Assembly: GCA_976226885.1 (NCBI GenBank)
Contig: OZ320313.1
Location: 115,630,001-115,694,000 of the forward strand
Source: Iphione sp. A-MEVVRFRX5
Lineage: Eukaryota
DNA: 64,000 nt
Reading direction: 5' to 3'
Every line of letters starts with the position of its first letter. The stretch's first letter is position 1. The notes beneath the pieces were generated by a model that made no database searches, was not told where the DNA came from, and saw only the letters and a list, made by a program, of their open reading frames with translations. The position numbers and the translations under genes were made by a program. Of this stretch, positions 47,814 through 63,400 are shown piece after piece.

Positions 47814-47960
47814 CTAATTGACCTCAAGTGGCTCTCGGTCGTCGTAGAGTGTGGGAGCTTGGAGGATTATTCCGAAGGTACCCACCACGCATGCGGTGGT
47901 GAAGATCCACAGGAAAAGACGGTCCAGCACTAGGGCCACGTACTTCCAGTCTTCCTTAAT
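47814..47960 (-). CDS. nAChR last coding exon ([48 protein letters not shown])
   Basis: 147 nt; TTGCAG acceptor in phase 0; TM4; TAG stop. Confidence 0.95.
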
Positions 47961-50900
47961 CTGCAATGGAATCGGGATGGGAGGATTAATCACTCGCCTA
48001 ATTAATTAGCTGTTGAGACTAGGCGCCTTGCTCCCAATGTGTAATTGGTTGTTATGCACCAAACACAACCTATTAGACTTGGAGATGCGGCGAATATACT
48101 GCCGGATTGGTCGTTACAGGGCCTGAGGAATGCAGGGTCCACGTAGCCACTAAATCAATTCTACAAGCTCATTGATACGTTTGACTGGGTTCAATAAAAT
48201 TTCATTAACTTTCAAAATGGCCATGGAACAATAATTTTGCCCCCCTCTTTTCAATAGCCAAAGCTTTTATAAAATTCTTGTGATTCGTAATGGTGTTGTG
48301 AATCATTTCAGTGTCACGCTCCGAGCAGCAACCTTTTCTGAGAAAAAACTTCATGACTCATCATGTCACATTCTTTAGATTTGAAACACTAATTAAAACC
48401 ATAGTCAATCTTCAACACCCACTTTTGTCTGTAAATTGTCGAAAGGGAAACAACCGTGTTGATGCAATTAATTCTAAAAGCGTTCATTCTGGGGGCTTTT
48501 AAATTTCATAATTTCCATTCGATAGATGGACCAGTTGGTTGTTGCAAGTGTCAAGACAATCGTGCTGTTAATTATATCATTGCGATCACCATTTATTACT
48601 CTGCAGATCAAGGCATACATATGTATTTCGTAGGAGATCAGGGCGGTACGACATCTACACTTGCTATAACAATTACTCGGTAAGGATTTCCTGTCATTCT
48701 AAGCCTGTTGTCACCAATGGGGGAACCCATCATATTTCAGTGAGGGACTAAATCTTTATGCTCTCATATCATATTTCATTACCTAAAGACCCTTTCTACA
48801 AATACCTGATGAAGTACAATTCATTCGGCACTTATTGAAAAGAAACCCGACCGTTGTAGAGTACTCCTCCCACCATGTCACTCTCTGTGGGACAATAAGC
48901 TCCACCTCACGCACGTCAATGACAGCTATGGCGCCGTCAATATGCCTATTATCAACCAAGATGTCGACTGAAAGCTGACTGCTCCTGACACGCGGGACAG
49001 GATCAATTGATCATTCACTTTGCCTTGGGGCCTTTGAACGAACGACCAATATTGCATGGTGTCCGTAATCATTGCACCCTGGTAGAGGATGTCTTCTACC
49101 CTGTAGTCACAGAACACATTGCAAGTAGACCACTTGTCACATGATAAAAAATACCAGCGCCCTGTCCCTATCATCGACACCCATTTTGGGACCATATGGG
49201 ACTTCAGTAGAATGGAAGTAGCTAGTTTATAACTAGTTGATAACTAGTGCCCTTTATATTCAGCATAAAGTGGACACCTAAAACTGTCGTCTAGGAGACT
49301 ATTTTTGACATACCTAATGCCGTTCTGAGGCCATTCCATCATCTTTATCGTAGAACACCTTTCAACTCATTGGAAGTCTGAATACAATGCTTTTACAAAG
49401 CGTAAGTTTATTTATTCATATCTAAACCCTACCCTACTGTCTGCCTCCTTCTTTTTAGGATGAGTGAGAGACATAGTTTGCAAGAAGAGACGCCTGCCGG
49501 ACCTGCCAGTCTAGACACGTTTCCCATCAACCGGTGGTAGTGTGGTACTGAGGTGTAAACTCTCGTAAAGGTCATGTCACCTAGAAAGCTTCCCCCTATG
49601 GATCATAATTAACTGAGTAGGATCAATGACAAGACTGGACTTTACGGGGTGCCCTTGGGTATGAGAAGTATTGTTAAGCTATATTTAGAAGATTCGTAAC
49701 AGCAGAAGGCAACCTGCGCTGATGGGAAAGTCATTATTACACGAACTCATTTAAGTACGTTAATAATGAGGTTTCTGTCTTCGCCATGGTTGTGTGTTGT
49801 TTTCCCATAAGCTGACTTTCTTGAACTAACGCCATGGAGAACCTTATCTTTCCTCTCGGTAGACATGTCGCTATTTTTGAAGGGACCTACGCGATCAAAA
49901 ATGATATTGAATCTGCGCTACGGCATCAGAATTTTGTATGGTATTCATTTGTGGCCATACGTTCGAAATTACAGCGTGAAATAATTTCGGGTGCTTGAAC
50001 GTGAAAGAAATTCAAATCGGGCAGAGATCAGTTCTGACATTCTAAAGAAGTTCTGTTGATTATCGGCTTCGTCTATGTTTAAAAAGGCACGACTTCAAAG
50101 AAAGTGAAGTTGGTGTATTACAGCCTACAGCCACACAAACCCTCTGTAGCCTGCAACGTGAGTAAGGATCGATCACAAATGACTAGATGTTGTTTAGGGA
50201 TGGAAACATTTCTGTTCTTTGTCACAATACGAGCTAATGAGAACCATTGCAAGAGCCTTGTCATTTTCCTCACCGTACCATATTGACTTATCTCAGATTT
50301 AGATTGTAAGCCAAGAGCTCCATGGACAGATTGTAATATATAAATGTTTCAACGTACTATCGCTGGCGATGTGGATGCATTGTTCCCCCCATTTCACCAT
50401 CTACATTAAGAACGATACATTTATGGCGATTAATTAAGGGGTTATGAAAATCTATTTACAACACTGCCTGTTATAAAAATACCTAACATAAAGATCTTAA
50501 TGTACCATCTTCCGTAGAATTGAGATAGGTCGAGTTCATATAACAAGTAGAGGGAACACTTACTTACATTGCAGAAACATTGCTAGCAGGTGAAATTCAA
50601 CCCAGATTATTGAAAGGTGCATGGTGCCTATAGCAGAGGTTGTAGAGTAAGAGGGTTATTCCGACCGACGAACCAGACTTACATTTGAGGCATCATCCTC
50701 CTCCTTGAGATGCTCAGCAATGTACCGAACCCCCTCAATCGCCTTTATCACCTCCGGCGTGTAGTTAGCCCGCGCATGGAGCCCGGCGCCGAAGTCGGCG
50801 TCCATATCGTCCGTCCCTCCCGACATCATGCCCGAGTAGTTCCCCATATTGTCAAAAGTCAGGTCTCTTGACAGGCGCCCACCGGCGCCGGCACCGGCCA

Positions 50901-53900
50901 CTTCCCCGCTGCCGCCGCCGACGCTTCCGCCGCCGGCGCCGTAAGAGTCGCGGATTTCGACGCCGTTGCAAGTGCGGACGACGACCTTGGGCGCGCGGTC
51001 GCGGTCGATGTGTGGGCGGCGCATGATGAGAAGGCGCGGCAGGATGTTGAGAAAGACCTTTCGCACCCAGGGCGACATAGTGTGGGTGGCGGGCGATCGG
51101 AAGTGGACGTTGAGAACAATAACGGTGACGATGATGGAGAGCGTGACGAGGATCATAGTGAAGAGTAAGTATTTGCCGATTAACGGCACGACGAGGGAAG
51201 TTGGCGGGATGATCTCGGCCAGCAGCAGGAAGAAGACGGTGAGCGAGAGCAGAATGGAGATACACAAAGTAATCTTCTCGCCGCTGTCCGACGGCAGGTA
51301 GAAAACAAGGACGGTGAGAAAACTGATCGCCACGCAGGGGATGATCAGATTCACCGTATGAAAGAGGGTCTTGCGCCTCATCGTAATATTGAAGGTTATA
51401 TCTGGATATGGTTCGCTGCAGCAGGTATAATATTTTTCGTTTTTGCGAGCGGGAACGCTAAGTAAGTCCCATTCAACGGACCGATAAAAGTCCTTCAGAT
51501 CAATGCCATTGGATATGATATCTAGATCACGTACGCCGGCCGCCTCTTGACCTATGTGTTTAAGGTCAACTTGGTAGCCATCGTAGGTCCAAGAGCCGAA
51601 CTTCAGAGTACATAATTGTTCGTCGAATGGGAAAAACTCAACGTTTATCGTGCAAGAACTCTTGTAGATTGCTGGCGGCTCCCAGTGCACCCGTCCGTCA
51701 GGGTAAAGTGTTGCTTTCGTCATCAGTGTTACCTCGTAGTTACCATCGGCACTGCAATTGTCATAGATGGACATCCAGGGTGTGCTCAGCTACTCAGGGA
51801 AATCATGCATAGACCTTCCCGGTCGACCAGGGACAGAGTAGGGAAGACAGGCGAGAATGGCAGTGGTCCTTGTTCAAGGAATTCCTTTTATGGAATATAC
51901 TTCTGAATGTAAATATGATGCTTTATGGTACCGATTACTAGATCCAGTAGCAAATCACCTCGTAGGCAATTCTACAAGGAGGGCAACTTAGAATAAAGGG
52001 TACGTTGGGCAGGTCCCAACGGTATATTTTATATAGTAAAACCAATTTAGAGAACATGGTGACAGTTAAGAGCACAATATGTCTGGTCCTATTTGCAGTC
52101 TTAATTCTGAGTTACTACTGTACATCACGGGTCATACATGGAGACGACATTGCAGTCTAGTATGAGAGAAAGTGGAATTTCATAAGTGCGGCCTCATATT
52201 GTTTGTATGGGGAGTGGGTGTAAAGCTTTACTGGCTATGCAGAGATACCGCGGTGGTACTACAAATTTCGGTTAGACATTTGGATCTCGTGGTGTTCATG
52301 TGGACCTAGAAATCGGTTACCCTTGGGATATTCAAGACAAGAAAAGGATAGAACGCTTCGGTCAGGAAACGTATCATTTTTTATGCACCAATTTCCTAAT
52401 TTCCCAAGGCAATTGTTAGCAATGACATCAGTTTGGACGACCAGGCTGCCATTCTTGCTGCCCACAGTTTCCAAGGAACAGAACAAATAATTCAGTGCGA
52501 CAAGCAGCAAGCAAACCAACATCACTTGATATTCAAATGCAGTTGTCATACAGATTAAAGCACAATCAGGTGGCTACTCAGGTGAATCTAAGGCATGCAA
52601 AAGGTTTGAACAGATCATCGCATTTTTAACGTGCTAGACACATTTCAAAGTGTCTGCTTAGTACAAGCCCCTTCCAGTCATAATTGAATTTCGATTATTA
52701 TCCTAATATATCATATGATAATGCGTCAAATAACCAACTTGAATACTGAAATAATATTCATACCAATGAATACGCGAGCACAAGAAATAAAATGAGGGTC
52801 TTACATTTATATGTGATTCATTTTGGATTATTGACAGTCTGCTGTCAGGTTTTTCTAATGATTTATGAATATCAATTCTCTTCCAATATGCGAGCTTCAA
52901 ACAACTTGCGCTATGGCCAGAAACACATAATTTTGATCGGAAAAACCAAGGCTAATTTCAGGGGTAATGGAAATCTGATCCATTTTAAATCAATTTAGGA
53001 GCCAATTTGTCAAGGCCATAATATTTCACTTCACAAATGGATTTTTCCCACCAATCTATCTTAACAGGGAGTGAAATGATCTTCGAAAATGCCTCTCCTT
53101 TCTTTCTCCGTAGGCTATGGGGAGGGGGGGGGGTAATTTCGCAGTAGTAGGAAATCACGAAGCAGCGCATGCAGATAAAAGGTGCGATCACGTAGACGGC
53201 CTGAGAACGTGCGGGTGGCGAAAGAGAAGAGGCTCCATGCGATAGTGAAGTGGAATTGTGTGCCCTGCACAGCGCCGATGAGGTGAACAGGCGAACTAAT
53301 GATGCCTCAAACGGCTACGTTACAGTATTCGCACCTCTTTCGGCCGGCAGAGGCTCACTAAGAATAATCATCACAGTTCACTGTCAGCGCAGCTGTGCAG
53401 GCACAGACAACCAGAAACGGTATAAATAAGAATACTGCGGCCCGAACTACAAGAAAAAACAACATAAGAGTAACAAGAACAAATAACATGTGCTGACATT
53501 CACACAGAAATACTGTATTCCTAAAACGTAAACGGGGCACACACAGTGAGATCTAAGTGAAAAAAATATGAAAAATAAAAAGACATGAATGCAAACAAAA
53601 CCGGAGAGAAGTGCGGTGCCTGGACTTCTACAGGGTGGTCTGGTCAGTATAGGAGAAAAGGAATAAACAGCGTGTGAGGGCCATAGAGCATGCAAGTGGT
53701 GAAAGGGCGCATAGATTCGTCGATGGGAAATGGATTGAGCTGCTCAGAAAATCCAGCGCAGGCATCATAGTCCGTGCCTCTCCCGCCATTTTCCAGCGGT
53801 CGAGGGATTACATTCATATAACTCCATTCTGCTCATGCCATTCACACAACACTCCAGGGGTTCGTGGTGGCCATCTGACCCCTACTGCCTGAGACAGACT

Positions 53901-54865
53901 TAGGGTGTCTCCCTGGCCAGAAAGAGTGATGAGGCTATCCAGTCGGGGTGATGTGGTGTTCCGCTCTGGTCTGAAAGAAATGGCTTCCTTGGGCTCCTGT
54001 CTTAAGTATAAAGAAACATGCTTAGCTTACGCGCGGCGCCACCGGGCTTGAAAATCTTCGCTCTGACTTTTGGACTGCAAAAGATAGAAAATCATTAATT
54101 GTTATTTTTTTCCAGAATTCCCAGCATGTCCTGTAACGACCCATCCGTCTTCAGCTAAAGCAACTAAAAACACAAGCATAACATCACATTGTTCAGGGAG
54201 CGATACATGGTGAGAATTATTCTCCAATGACCCTTCGCTTCGTCCACGATGGTGGCGATTGCATTCTGGCTCTTATTGTACTTACTTATTGAAGAGAACT
54301 ATCTCTGGCGTCCAAATAGATGCGGCGGGTACGTGGAGACTGCCTATACCTCCGTAATCTGATGGTCTCCACCTAAGACTCATATCCTGCCAGATCTTCA
54401 AACGGAAGATAGTCATTGTCTCTGGGTTAAAATTCATTTTATAATTGAGTTTAACTCGATATTATTCCTCGCACAGGGAGCCCAACCAGGTACGTAGAGT
54501 TAGTTCTTTGAGGATGTCACGAATCACAATGTTAATAGGTACTAACGAATAAGTAGAACGTTACAGCCGTGCACCCAAATTCTCACCGTTTTAAAGACAG
54601 GATTCTAAGTTTTAATCTTTAGTATAGAAGATGTGGTGTTATTACCGTGACACCGTCAAAGCCGTTGGAAAGTCTACGTTGGTTGAAATACTGTGTCTAT
54701 GCCATCGACAATCCGATGATGTTTTGCTCATTGCTAAACAAATGCGTTTACTTACTTATTGTAGAGTACAATATCTGGTAGCCATATTTCCTCAGACGGC
54801 ACGTACAGCCTATTTACTCCCCCGTACTGGTTAGGGTCCCATTTTAGTTTGTAGTCATCCCATTC
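47814..54865 (-). CDS. Nicotinic acetylcholine receptor alpha subunit, cation-type, 5'-partial: [54756-54865 OR 54286-54395] + 50683-51751 + 47814-47960
   Basis: Loop [11 protein letters not shown]; Cys-loop [15 protein letters not shown]; loop B FGSWTYDG; loop C vicinal cysteines [11 protein letters not shown] (alpha subunit); TM1-TM3 with [23 protein letters not shown] (GEK, cation-selective); MA/TM4 [20 protein letters not shown]. All junctions are GT-AG and in phase. Upstream exons were not found in 54866-64000. Confidence 0.96.
50683..51751 (-). CDS. nAChR large exon: loops E/B/F/C, Cys-loop, TM1-TM3, Gly-rich cytoplasmic loop
   Basis: 1069 nt; TTGCAG|T acceptor; AAT|GTAAGT donor; matches ORF 50656..51774 minus its intronic ends. 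Confidence 0.97.
54286..54395 (-). CDS. nAChR loop-A exon, copy B, putative mutually exclusive alternative ([37 protein letters not shown])
   Basis: 110 nt, open frame, 19/37 aa identical to copy A without gaps; AA|GTAAGT donor; AAG acceptor (in-frame CAG 9 nt downstream). Confidence 0.85.
54756..54865 (-). CDS. nAChR loop-A exon, copy A ([37 protein letters not shown])
   Basis: 110 nt; TTTCTTGCTGGCAG acceptor; AA|GTAAGT donor; phase 0 to 2, joining T-GCC-GAT-GGT of the next exon. Confidence 0.95.
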
Positions 54866-55029: not shown

Positions 55030-57460
55030 CAGTCAGACTGCAGTAACCGGAGCATTGATGTTAGTTTGAAAATACTCTGGATACCAGATATTCCGTATGC
55101 TGAAATCACTACACATGCATCTCCTGGCAGGGAAAACTTGTGTAATAGTACAGTATTGGTGAACTATTATATTGAACATATATCTATTCTAATCACTACA
55201 GGAGCAAAACCTGGTGGGGAAAACGTGCATAAAAGTCAAGTATGGTAGAAATGTCATATTTTAAATTATGTTTTTCCTAATGAACAAAATGGACATAAAT
55301 CAGTTCTGAACAGTCCAGAAATCATTTTATTAAGCTCAAAGCATATCTTACAGGTATAACATTGTTGGAAAGAGTGAAATATTAAATTACTTGGAATTGA
55401 AAAAGTCTTTGAGCAAAGTCTGTCTACAACTCCTCTGTGAGGTCTGGGCCTTATGTAGGATTCCATGAAGGAAGGGGACTCTTTCCATATCCTTGTTGTC
55501 CTCACAGTACCTCACCAGGAAATTCACTGATCTGGTATCTCTTTCATGGTTATAGGAGGTGGTGGCATCTCCTGTCTCTTGCTCCTCCTCTGTGTCCCCA
55601 CACACCTCAGGGCCTCTCACTAGTGCCAGTAGAGCATCATTGGTGAGTTCCCCTGAGGTCTCTGCAGTGGAGTCCACTTCTGTGAACTCCTGGGCAGACA
55701 TCATTCCTTGTGACTCCTCAGGTGGCAGTGACTAGAGGAGCATCAGGAGTTCAGACAAGGACATGTCCTCCTCATCCTACACATCTTCCACATGTCTGGG
55801 CTTCCCAGAGAGAATGTCAGTGTGCCTCCAGCAGTTCTTGATGGTGGTTGGAGTGACAGCCTCCCAGGCCTCATGCACCATGAGAATTTCCTTTCTCATG
55901 TCAGCTGTCATGGGGTTGCCTTGCTCCACACACCTCAAGAAGTGCCTGACCAGCCTTCCCCCATACTGGGCCTTGAAAGAGGCAATGATCCCAGCATCTA
56001 GAGGCTGGATTTGGGAAGTGGTGTTGCGGGGCAGGTGCTTGATGGTGATTTTGGGGAAGGTCTTGGATGTTCTGTGACTTCCAGTATTATCACAGAGTAC
56101 CAGGTGGTGGTGCCCCTTGGATCTGGCCCTGGTGTCAGGCAACTGGAGGAAATCTTCCCAGAGGATGGATGTCATCCAGGCCTTGGTGTTATCCCTGTAA
56201 TGCACATACATCCCTGGATCAAATGTCTTTCCAATATATCTGGGCCTTGCAGCCTTTCCTATGAGGAAAGGCCTCAATTTGTCACTTCCAGTGGCAGTAC
56301 AGCAGAGGGCCACTGTAACTCTGTCTTTGCTCTTCTTCTCTCCCTTCACAGGCCCAGTAGGGAGGGTTAATGTTGGTTTCAGCCTATAAAATAACCCAGT
56401 TTCGGCCACATTGTAGACATCCTCTGGATCAAAGCCCTCAAGCTCTTGGTGCAGCTTCAAGTGCCTGCCGCATACGGTGGACTGGTTGACACTGCCAGAC
56501 TCCCTGTGTTGTCTGTACAATTTTATTCTATGGCATTTCTTGAAGCAGCTTATCCACCCTTTGCTATATGAGAAGTCTTGGATCTGTAGTTCGTCTCTGA
56601 GCTGTCTGGTTTTCTCAATGAGCATATCATGACTGATATTTGTACCTCTGCCTCTGAAATTCTGAAACCATATCAGCAATGCCTGTTTGAGCTTATTCTG
56701 CTTGAACAGGTAGGGGGACCATGTACAAGAGAACTTGGTATCCTCAGACCCCATGGATAACCAGTGCGCTGAATGCTTAGGATGTCCAATGTGGTTGACC
56801 TGGAGAGAGCAAATCTCCACTTGGTCTAAAACATCTGAGAACATGTCAGATGTGCTTTCTTTTATTCACAGAGTTCCTTCTTTTGGACATTGGATATGCA
56901 TATTCTTCATCTTTTGGAGTCAGCTGAGATATCGTGGTTGCTCCAGGGTGAATGGTAAAGAATGCCTGGAGGGTCCAGCTTATATCATCCTCCTAGGGCT
57001 GTAGTGATTTCAAGGCTTGACAAGACAAGACAATGACTGGGGAAAGACTTTCACAGTGTGCAACTGCTATCTGGCCCTCATAAACTTAATCTTTGGTTAG
57101 GGGAGGATGGCAGGAGTTACTCTGACCATGGATATTCATTTCATTATGAAATACAGCCCTACCCGCCACCTCCACTGTGGGCAGCCTGTGTTATTTGAGC
57201 AACTTGGCCATCGCACCAGTTGCACTAATGCCAGGCTTATCACAGAGGTGCCCCCACCATCAAACTAATATCTGTATCCAGTTAACTGTGATTACTTTGT
57301 ATATAAATCAATTTAAAATGGCTTGAAATATGCTCCGGTTGTGGATACGGGGGTCCAGATATGTAGTACAACTTATAATGAAAATAGTCTAGTCCCTGCA
57401 TTTCATTATGGTTAAAGTGACATTATGGTTACAGGGTCTCCAGTTACCATGGTCTGACTG
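55030..57460 (-). mobile_element. pogo/Tigger-family (Tc1/mariner superfamily) DNA transposon, full length (2431 bp) but defective
   Basis: TA on both flanks (55028-29, 57461-62); imperfect TIRs CAGTCAGACTGCAGTAACCGGAG vs CAGTCAGACCATGGTAACTGGAG (18/23 identical); internal transposase pseudogene. Confidence 0.9.
55387..56935 (-). pseudogene. pogo/Tigger transposase pseudogene (CENP-B-type HTH, DDE_1-type catalytic domain, C-terminal PIP-box-like motif)
   Basis: N-terminal HTH remnant QKKELCE*KKAH...LSRSTTLDIL with stops and a frameshift; ALLIWF and FSYSKGWISCFKKCHRI; YNVAETGLFY (first catalytic D is A), LCDNTGSH and QPLDAGII (DD30D); two in-frame TAG stops near 55777 and 55732; ends RQTLLKDFFNSK. 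Confidence 0.9.
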
Positions 57461-60394: not shown

Positions 60395-60448
<54 letters not shown>

Positions 60449-60484
60449 ACTCTCTCTCTCTCTCTCTTTCTCACTCTCTCTCTC
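60377..60484. repeat. (CTC)n followed by (CT)n microsatellite
   Basis: Directly visible; creates the spurious LSLSLS ORF 60231..60728. Confidence 0.95.
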
Positions 60485-63400
60485 GTTCCTCTTTTTTTTG
60501 GTGAGGTGCCTCTATGCTGGGTCTATCATGACGGAAATAATCTGTCCACGAACGGCAGGCCCTCTGGTCATAATATGGACCTCAGTAATGGCCATGGGTC
60601 GAAGACATGCAACCACTTGCTTTTTATTGGCTGAGAAACTCTCGATTTGTGCTCAATATCCGGCTGTGAAGCCAAGTCGAAAGATGCCGCCACATAGCAA
60701 GGCGGCCATCAAATGGAGCAGGCAATAACGACCGGTTCTCCTCAGGTCTGACTGAGTGGTCTTGACAAAGTGACGTATTCTTTGTGGTAATGGGGTATAT
60801 TACTGTTACAAACGTACTGTCTAAATTGAAAAACCTGTCTATTTTCCTGTATCTATGTGTGCTACCGAGTCGTATCATACTGCCTGAAGTAACAGGACAA
60901 TAACAGATATAAAGACACTTAAGATATGAACACCTATCTGCAAGTAAAATGCGGGATACACTGATGATTATACCCAATATATAAGCATACATTTACGCCT
61001 TTTTGTTAATTGGCATCGATGCTTCTTTCGTGTCAGATATGGTGCTGATTTACAACAAAAACTCATACCGACCATCCGTAAAACGGTTGAAATATAGTTA
61101 GACGCAACAAAGCAGCAAGTCGGCTTTGACACCTATTTACCGATACGGTTGTCAGTGCCACGTCGCCTCCCCGCTTGCCGAGTACAAAGCCAATCAGTGA
61201 CGATGAGGTGGCGCCCTCGGAGCCTACCAGCGCGCCAATCTAGTCTTCTAATTTTCTCATGTTGCGGTATTCAACCCGTGTAAACATTGGCCAATAATTG
61301 GCGCGATTACTATGAAGGGTCACGTCCATGATCAGCCTCCCTCAGTCGTGGGCGCCTATGTGACTTTGCCTGCACGTCCTACACCCACCCACCCACCACC
61401 TCCAAAATCACAGCCCACCTACCCAGCCCGGTGTTCAATGTGGAATCGCAACCCGTCCGGAGGCAAGAAAAATACATTGTGAGTCGCCATATGACTCGGA
61501 GGTGGCTTTTAAAGCTGGCATTTTATGGCTGTGACAAGCATAAGCACGAGCTGGCTGACTGAGATAAAACATCCAATAGACGGCAAGACCTTGTGTCTAA
61601 AGACGTTAACCCGGCGTTCGCCGGATTCCCTAAGCCTGTGAAGCATAGTCCTGCATTCTGGGGCAGGCGACCCGGCAGGTCAGCTCTTGCACATTGTTCC
61701 GCTACGGACCGGTGATTTGGGACCAGTTTTTCCCACCTGGCAATGATTCACTTCACCGTAATGTCAATATGTATGGGCGCTTCCGGTAGGGAAAATCATC
61801 TATTTTTTCAATTCGGTTTTATAAAGGAGATTCTAAGGATAGGGGCAAAAGATCATGTATACATATGTTCAAAAAAACTTTGAACGGAAAGCAATACGAA
61901 CGGATACCAACGACAATTAAAATGCGAGGGCGAGATTTTAAAATCTATCAAAGAAGTAGTTGCCTTTTTATGATACATTGCTCCAACCAATGTATATTGC
62001 TATCTTAGAGGTCCCTTTGTCACATTTTGTAAACCGACGATGCCTTGATAGCAATTGCATTGCTTGACGAGATTCTGAGTAAGGCAACTGACTGCTCAAG
62101 CCCCAGCGGGAGATAACCCGCGCCAATAACGGTCACACAGGTATGATCACTTTCTAGATGTGTCCAGACAAAGAATGGATTGTACGACTATACCTTTCCC
62201 CCAGGAGATGGTTGCAATCTACGAAAATCGGTTTATGTAGTCAGCCTGGTGAGACGACTAAAATTGCCCCTGACATGCCTCTGAGGAAAGGAAAAACGTA
62301 AATTAATTTCCATTGCTTCAGGATTCGACTCACGCTGTCGTCTACTAGAACGTGTGGGATAACTGTCTCTTAGGCAAATGGAGTTGAATTTAGGAATTAA
62401 AAGAAAGACTAAATAGTTTTATCCCACTGAAGAAGAATGAAGAAGATTTGGGTTCACCAGAGTTTCTAAGAGAAAGCCGAATTGAGACGAAAATCTTACT
62501 GCTTTATGAATTGGAAGTAGTTGATATTAAGTAGATTATGACTGAATCGAAATCACCGTATCTGGATGTTTCACGGCTAAGATTTGTAACTCGCTTAATA
62601 ATAGCAACGTCCTCGTGCACATAGGAGTAATATAGGAGAGACAGCTCCTTTGTCTCTCACGATTGATAAAACAGATTAGTGTTTTTTACATCTACTTGTC
62701 GGGGTAGTACTGATACCAAAAATCTCCGATTGGAATTCCATCCAATCTGGACTAAGGATTTAGGGCAACATCTACTTCGGAGAGATGTGCCCTTAGATAA
62801 CTCAGTTCATATTTGAGTGAAGGATATGGATGAGGACAGCAAGGTTAGATGGCGACAATGTGAGAAGAAATCTTGTCAAGCAAGAAAGTTCAACTGACTC
62901 TGCTACATACACAACGCAAAGAGAGGGACCATACGTAGATGGCATTTTCAATGGACGTTAGAATGCAGATGGCCTAGTGGTGCCTAGAGGTCCAAAACGA
63001 AACGCCGCTAACTGTGCAGATCAATCACTTCGTCGCCATGAACCGCACCAGACATTACTCATGAAAAAAGCTCCTTTCATCCTTCCTTCGGTTCCATTAC
63101 TTCAGAGACGAGGGGAGAGAACTCGAGCGCCAGCAAACACTGATGACGCTAGTCCATACACAGTAGACCTGCTCCGGCCTGCCGCCATGTTAACTGCTAC
63201 GGATAACTATAGGAACGGCTTGGTGCTGACGCCTCCCTAGCTCCTCTCCCTTTGCATCGGCCCTATGAATGATTTTTTAAAGCTTCACGCCAGCAATGAA
63301 TTACTTATGCTGATCATGGGCGATGAAGGGAGGAAGGGCAAATGCCAACCGAGGCAATTAGGAGTGCAGATTCTTGCCCGGCGGTCCCCCCAGTGATGAC

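Follow-up and report, generated by a model that had tools for sequence, protein, structure and literature searches.

The locus studied here raises the question of whether a single nicotinic acetylcholine receptor gene can furnish two different agonist sites by the exchange of one small exon. In the window, by which we mean the whole stretch of 64,000 nucleotides analysed from the genome of Iphione sp. A-MEVVRFRX5, a first-pass annotation had reported two copies of a loop A segment, one reading WLPDIVLY (copy A) and the other WTPEIVLF (copy B), and had proposed that splicing could switch between them. Both motifs were confirmed on the minus strand, at 54784-54758 and 54314-54288, respectively, and the interval annotated earlier turned out to cover only the last third of exon B. 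The features of the gene, including two exons located outside the window, are as follows.

Ending near G000:C1 115718431, outside the window: exon preceding the loop D exon.
G000:C1:115696173-115696217, outside the window, upstream: loop D exon, 45 nt.
54756..54865, minus strand: exon A, 110 nt, alpha1-equivalent residues 59-95, with the canonical loop A W86 L P D89 I V L Y93 N; Pfam PF02931, 48.9 bits.
54784-54758, minus strand: loop A motif WLPDIVLYN of exon A.
54396..54755, minus strand: intron separating exons A and B, 360 nt.
54396..54398, minus strand: acceptor AAG of exon B.
54286..54395, minus strand: exon B, 110 nt, tandem duplicate of exon A, with the loop A W86 T P E89 I V L F93 N; Pfam PF02931, 41.9 bits.
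54288..54314, minus strand: loop A motif WTPEIVLFN of exon B; E89 codon at 54305-54303, F93 codon at 54293-54291.
50683..51751, minus strand: shared exon, 1069 nt, encoding the Cys loop, loop B with W149, loop C with YYTCC and Y198, M1-M3 with GEK, and the intracellular loop.
47814..47960, minus strand: last coding exon, encoding M4 and the stop.

The two exons were found to be alike in length, phase and donor, their ends being cag ... AA/GTAAGT in A and aag ... AA/GTAAGT in B, and the last AA of either exon combines with the first T of the shared downstream exon to encode the second N of "NN". They are identical at 18 of 36 residues and 61 of 110 bases. Residues 2-36 of exon B aligned without gaps to residues 60-94 of the mature Torpedo and human muscle alpha chains (2bg9_A, 6uwz_A, 9gu0_A), which places its W, E and F at positions 86, 89 and 93. 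The equivalence to D89E and Y93F in muscle/Torpedo numbering, as asserted in the first-pass annotation, was thus borne out, and the roles it had assigned to these loop A residues, namely that D89 supports loop B and Y93 belongs to the aromatic agonist cage, were likewise supported. The other 16 differences between A and B all fall at positions 59-87. Thirty-one distinct homologous exons were inspected in the genome, namely the best 30 of 106 loop A matches ranked by likeness to A together with one tandem copy. The acceptor is CAG or TAG in 30 of them, the exception being exon B, the AAG of which is accompanied by a short pyrimidine tract; D89 is likewise present in all but exon B (30/31), and Y93 in 28/31. 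Loop A motifs could be matched in 84 of 120 homologues, with D/Y at the two positions in 72, D/F in 11 and E/F in one. A second, in-frame CAG acceptor (54384-54395, minus strand) was also noticed 9 nt inside exon B, the use of which would give a form without I59-W60-Q61 and hence delete the conserved W60.

In the gene as a whole, Pfam PF02931 and PF02932 scored above the cut-off, and the shared exon carries a C-x13-C with FPFD at 51654-51610 (minus strand), GSWTY (W149), the GEK filter motif ahead of M2, and YYTCCSEPY with Y190, the vicinal cysteines and Y198 all present; the earlier statement that loop C (YYTCC) comes from a common downstream exon therefore held, the motif being found in exon 51751-50683. 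In loop A, isoform A shows W-x-P-D and the tyrosine TyrA, and isoform B departs from both (E89, F93). On these sequence features, the gene is a cation-type nicotinic alpha subunit gene. Its closest named homologues are those of Lineus, Owenia and Paralvinella (72-74% identity), and the shared exon is 63-74% identical to the mollusc and nemertean genes that possess isoform pairs, which by sequence belong to the same subunit group. In a FastTree analysis of 216 columns the gene was placed among annelid sequences with modest support (83-89, none starred), and the annelid-rich group (83-89) and the mollusc group (98) formed a fork with the nemertean and arthropod groups without resolved branching order. 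The 106 loop A matches in this genome fit the annelid/mollusc expansion of nicotinic receptors described in the accessible part of PMC6896357, and the gene is probably an annelid one. Exon 2, exon 3 and the M4 exon each occurred once in the 48 kb searched, and the idea that exon B is a piece of a second gene was rejected on the lack of a second copy of any of the three there.

Other elements were noticed around the gene. The intron upstream of exon A holds a Tc5/pogo-like DNA transposase with an open frame of 362 codons (Pfam HTH_Tnp_Tc5, DDE_1; 55777-56865, minus strand), and a (GA)n microsatellite lies on the minus strand in the long intron at about 60395-60490. On the same strand, about 140 kb away, resides a beta1-like subunit gene with WKPDIVLFN and without vicinal cysteines (G000:C1:115818596-115824929; L020, L054), which is a candidate for the partner subunit of the alpha gene.

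Whether the two exons are alternatives was assessed from the reading frame. Exon 3 joined to the shared exon through either A or B is open for 408 codons; in contrast, inclusion of both leads to a stop at codon 57, and skipping of both to a stop at codon 19, each more than 1000 nt ahead of the next junction. Owing to these early stops, the frame together with nonsense-mediated decay could enforce exclusivity. Steric exclusion of splicing requires introns below a limit of about 50 nt, and this mechanism was rejected for the 360-nt intron between A and B, which is far above that limit. An inverted repeat of 34 nt, pairing 52609-52642 with 54692-54725, has a folding energy of about -33 to -35 kcal/mol; docking/selector pairing by this repeat is not claimed, as 16 of 40 shuffles were as good or better, and a search for a partner of similar strength 3' of exon B found none (best -24.3). 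Taken together with the isoforms described below, exons A and B are likely to be spliced as either-or alternatives.

The divergence between the copies indicated that exon B is both old and maintained. Differences from A at codon positions 1, 2 and 3 amount to 12, 11 and 26 of 36, and 8 of 10 four-fold sites have changed, a pattern which implies an old duplication; a recent duplication was rejected on these four-fold differences and on flanks that match at only 25/60 and 23/60. In a simple neutral simulation with uniform substitutions starting from the present A, without indels (200,000 runs), AG, GT and an open frame survived in 3100/200,000 runs when divergence was set to the observed 45%; at least 18 residues were kept as well in 3/200,000, and at 60% or 70% in none. 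Moreover, the B exon of a relative (ENA reading frame P0175) was identical to exon B at 28 of 36 residues, including the entire WTPEIVLFN and 11 of the 18 B-specific residues; P0003, an 87%-identical homologue of the shared exon, probably belongs to the same locus as P0175, the two contigs being equal in length (1,404,834). B-type exons elsewhere were recovered by an HMMER search, and a word-index search with stretches of exon B gave no match. The possibility that exon B is a pseudoexon was ruled out by its saturated synonymous sites, its intact frame and splice sites, and the 28/36 identity in the relative. By these measures, both exon copies are under purifying selection.

The same exon swap was found in molluscs and a nemertean. 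Two forms of the loop A exon occur in 8 of 10 homologue clusters (Haliotis, Octopus, Patella, Aplysia, the Pecten group, Ostrea, Biomphalaria and Lineus), and the swap was absent from the Tubulanus and Littorina clusters and between two Owenia isoforms. When 20 isoform comparisons were made, 16 proved to swap the loop A exon, 12 of them without any other difference, and four did not. In Aplysia, 18 of the differences between "alpha1" (AAL78648/NP_001191489, subunit type E) and "alpha2" (AAL78649/NP_001191490) lie within the exon and four elsewhere, and the "alpha2" sequence equals RefSeq isoform X1 of the alpha1 gene. Annotated database isoforms of this sort generally rest on cDNA or RNA-seq. 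The proposal of a splice switch in the first-pass annotation thus gains support from the frame logic, the selection on B and the annotated either-or isoforms of molluscs and the nemertean.

Comparison of 16 A/B pairs (the present gene, 13 annotated pairs and two models with both copies) further delineated the two forms, with A and B being assigned by eye and several of the species being congeners or close kin. All 16 A forms have D89 and Y93. Among the B forms, F93 is present in 14/16, Patella and Lineus retaining Y, and E89 in 3/16, namely the present gene and two abalone pairs, the B forms of which carry the identical WTPEIVLFN. E89 with F93 was also found in two further B-type exons, and the unpaired B-like forms of Lymnaea, Bradybaena and Arion keep Y93. 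Y79 and L87 are kept in 16/16 A forms and changed in 15/16 and 14/16 B forms, respectively. Between species the B exons are more variable, with a mean identity of 20.7/36 versus 27.6/36 for the A exons. In this sample F93 is the prevailing mark of the B forms and E89 a recurrent extra; as F93 is not universal and E89 occurs in only 3/16, the conserved purpose of B may lie elsewhere than in these two residues.

As to whether the pair arose once, the exon trees (FastTree and a 25-row IQ-TREE, built on 36 columns that resolve little) split the A forms, together with the arthropod single exons, from the B forms (FastTree 0.89; SH-aLRT 93, unstarred), with both Lineus copies grouping with the A forms. 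A separate A/B duplication in the present lineage was not rejected (AU p 0.156). In a Tegillarca gene model and in one genomic read-through, the A form again precedes the B form. In addition, Lys stands directly before the exon in 5/7 B-type genomic read-throughs versus 5/94 others (Fisher p 6e-5, the classes being drawn post hoc and the rows non-independent), a count in which an AAG acceptor would give Lys, AAA could do so too, and TAG acceptors are invisible. A single ancient origin of the A/B pair is the favoured reading of these sequences. A broader extension, which we put forward tentatively as possible rather than probable, is that one splice switch predating the annelid-mollusc split, with a weak AAG acceptor in common, sets the agonist site of the main excitatory alpha subunit in lophotrochozoan neurons to either a high-sensitivity state (D89/Y93) or a low-sensitivity or accessory-like state (F93, repeatedly with E89). 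The Aplysia "alpha1" and "alpha2" would then be its products, and cell-specific choice could underlie some of the distinct cationic ACh responses of mollusc and annelid neurons.

The consequences of exon B for agonist binding can be gauged from functional figures that all derive from vertebrate muscle receptors. In the accessible part of PMC2234004, human muscle alphaD89E shifted K1 from 35 to 83 μM and K2 from 77 to 340 μM, which corresponds to an ACh affinity lowered about 2-4-fold, with gating little changed and surface expression low but measurable. Mouse alphaY93F, according to the accessible part of PMC2525745 (Table II), lowered the gating constant from 45 to 0.7 (64-fold) in a receptor still gated by ACh; on the effect of Y93F, this report and PMC11655062 disagree. 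The hydroxyl of TyrA was termed crucial in a review (PMC4006026). From the 2-4-fold affinity loss with D89E and the conflicting data on Y93F, isoform B is predicted to be weakened, not dead. The first-pass annotation had stated that exon B rewrites loop A, and while the replacement of D89 and Y93 is real, its effect is likely to be smaller than this wording implies; the altered nicotinoid or toxin sensitivity that the annotation also suggested is speculative. Our preferred reading, held with moderate confidence, is that the gene holds two intact loop A exons in tandem, A and B, likely used either-or, and so would give rise to two subunits, a canonical one (A) and another (B) predicted to bind ACh several-fold more weakly yet still to form a site. 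The 16 further changes in B may matter as much as those at 89 and 93.

Under the preferred reading of a weakened B site, exon B would be spliced in the present species, with exclusivity kept at least by the frame, since nonsense-mediated decay would clear any transcript that included both exons or skipped both. The upstream exon A, with its CAG acceptor, would serve as the default, and exon B, with the weaker AAG acceptor, would have to be activated in some cells. In the B subunit, the missing hydroxyl at position 93 and the extra length of the E89 side chain would loosen the hydrogen-bond network between loop A and loop B under W149. W149, Y190, C192-C193, Y198 and the loop D tryptophan, all supplied by shared exons, would keep the site usable, and subunit contacts may be shifted as well by the remaining 16 substitutions at 59-87.

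The chief rival reading is an effect on assembly exerted through these 16 other changes, in which the exons are still either-or alternatives and B mainly yields an accessory-like or partner-selecting subunit comparable to vertebrate beta3, its loop A changes reflecting a relaxed need for the principal face. We regard this as unlikely, while recognizing that it has several observations on its side: 16 of the 18 A/B differences lie outside 89 and 93, Y79 and L87 separate the two forms as counted above, and Phe occupies the TyrA position both in accessory beta3 (8a5u_B; PMC9319688, as far as its accessible text goes) and in the beta1-like gene L020 of this genome. Furthermore, D89E reduced surface expression of the muscle receptor (accessible part of PMC2234004), and insect alpha4 exon 4/4' has been reported to influence assembly (cited in the part of PMC2064938 available). 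Against it, the loop C tyrosine is missing as well from beta3 and alpha5, but isoform B retains W149, Y190, both vicinal cysteines and Y198 through the shared exon; the exact E89 and F93 of the relative, too, look more like selection than relaxation. It is less probable still that both exons are used and the isoforms are pharmacologically near-alike, D89E and Y93F being tolerated conservative changes; a distinct B form in 8/10 clusters (molluscs and the nemertean) and in the relative implies some selected difference, and the 64-fold drop in gating constant with Y93F (PMC2525745, accessible part) also speaks against near-identity.

Two further readings have very little probability in our estimation. 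One takes exon B to be dead or a poison exon in the present species, rarely spliced or joined with A to trigger decay, for which the unusual AAG acceptor, the short pyrimidine tract and the stop at codon 57 upon A+B inclusion could be invoked; against it stand synonymous sites that are saturated while the protein features remain intact, the 28/36 identity in the relative and the B-only isoforms annotated in related genes, and a poison exon would have no need of a conserved loop A. The other, similarly remote, regards exon B as an adaptation reducing sensitivity to the nicotinic toxins of predators or prey. The exon does span loop A, B exons vary among species more than A exons, and residues near 77-79 within the exon face the neighbouring subunit where peptide antagonists bind, which we count in favour of such an adaptation; nevertheless, the canonical A form is retained, and F93 B-type exons span snails, bivalves and cephalopods of very different ecology.

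Duplicated exons were also encountered in other nicotinic-family genes of this genome. An alpha7-like gene (G000:C13:78187245-78188003; L010, L012, L013, L026, L041) has four intact tandem 110-nt loop A exons, all with D89 and Y93; the introns between them measure 213, 48 and 58 nt, and the second and third are short enough to block joint inclusion; its preceding N-terminal exon is present twice, and it has two similar terminal regions. Another gene (G000:C2:119433860-119434325; L024, L044) contains two intact tandem loop A exons that both read WIPDIMLYN. In an alpha7-like gene about 330 kb from the window (G000:C1:116015425-116015898; L056) the loop C-M1 exon occurs in two tandem copies, and a paralogue without vicinal cysteines (G000:C1:28093176-28094435; L053) has two M4-type terminal exons about 1 kb apart. 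The paralogues at C22, C1:28284813 and C1:28102734 showed one loop A exon each, with no second copy within the 20-30 kb examined. Outside this genome, the spider alpha-type subunits P0064, P0071 and P0086 (Oedothorax, Argiope and Stegodyphus) bear a constitutive-looking F93 along with vicinal cysteines (YYDCC).

If the preferred reading of a weakened B site is true, one gene yields two agonist sites through one small exon, which amounts to a natural experiment on D89 and Y93, residues that rank among the most thoroughly studied of the binding site, and this would bear on the responses of annelids and molluscs to nicotinic drugs and pesticides. Sequences of both isoforms from Aplysia, Lymnaea and Octopus are already in databases, so that the pair is testable at once in these animals. 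Primers, knock-downs and names directed at the type E subunit may meanwhile pool or split two splice forms.

Among known systems, the insect alpha4 and alpha6 genes resemble the present gene in combining tandem exon duplication with either-or splicing that alters functional parts of a nicotinic subunit. Exon 3 of insect alpha6 encodes loop D. The either-or exons described in the accessible part of PMC2064938 are alpha4 exon 4/4' and alpha6 exons 3a/3b and 8a/8b/8c, of which alpha4 exon 4 corresponds to loop E and the Cys loop and alpha6 exon 8 to M2; in the present gene it is the loop A exon that is duplicated instead, and none of the insect cases in that text swaps a loop A exon or changes D89 or Y93. 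The arthropod homologues listed here were of the single A-type form only. Vertebrate beta3, and alpha5 with it, offer a second parallel in that Phe94 of beta3 occupies the TyrA position, as does F93 in exon B; according to the accessible part of PMC9319688, they are separate genes rather than splice forms and lack the loop C tyrosine, in contrast to isoform B, which keeps YYTCC/Y190. The same two substitutions have been engineered in muscle AChR as alphaD89E and alphaY93F; in the accessible parts of PMC2234004, PMC2525745, PMC4621750 and PMC11655062 these are single mutants of vertebrate receptors, whereas exon B combines both changes in an invertebrate subunit with 16 other differences, and the literature searched, within its accessible text, yielded no test of the double change in such a background. 

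No account of paired loop A exons from molluscs or annelids was found either in the accessible text of the literature searched, including PMC6896357, PMC13174522, PMC3874043, PMC4193815, PMC8414863, PMC4569296 and bioRxiv 10.1101/2025.04.02.646353; an earlier mention, for instance in the original Lymnaea and Aplysia subunit papers, is possible. The closest counterparts are Aplysia "alpha1"/"alpha2" and the RefSeq pairs of Haliotis, Octopus, Pecten, Mizuhopecten, Argopecten, Ostrea, Biomphalaria, Patella and Lineus, in which the same 36 residues are swapped as in the present gene. These are known as database entries, and no paper was found in which the two forms are compared with each other or explained by a splice switch. 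Either-or exons are a known device of insect nicotinic receptors at other exons, and the loop A exon pair, judged by its sequence, is a real and conserved addition to them, with a function that we infer.
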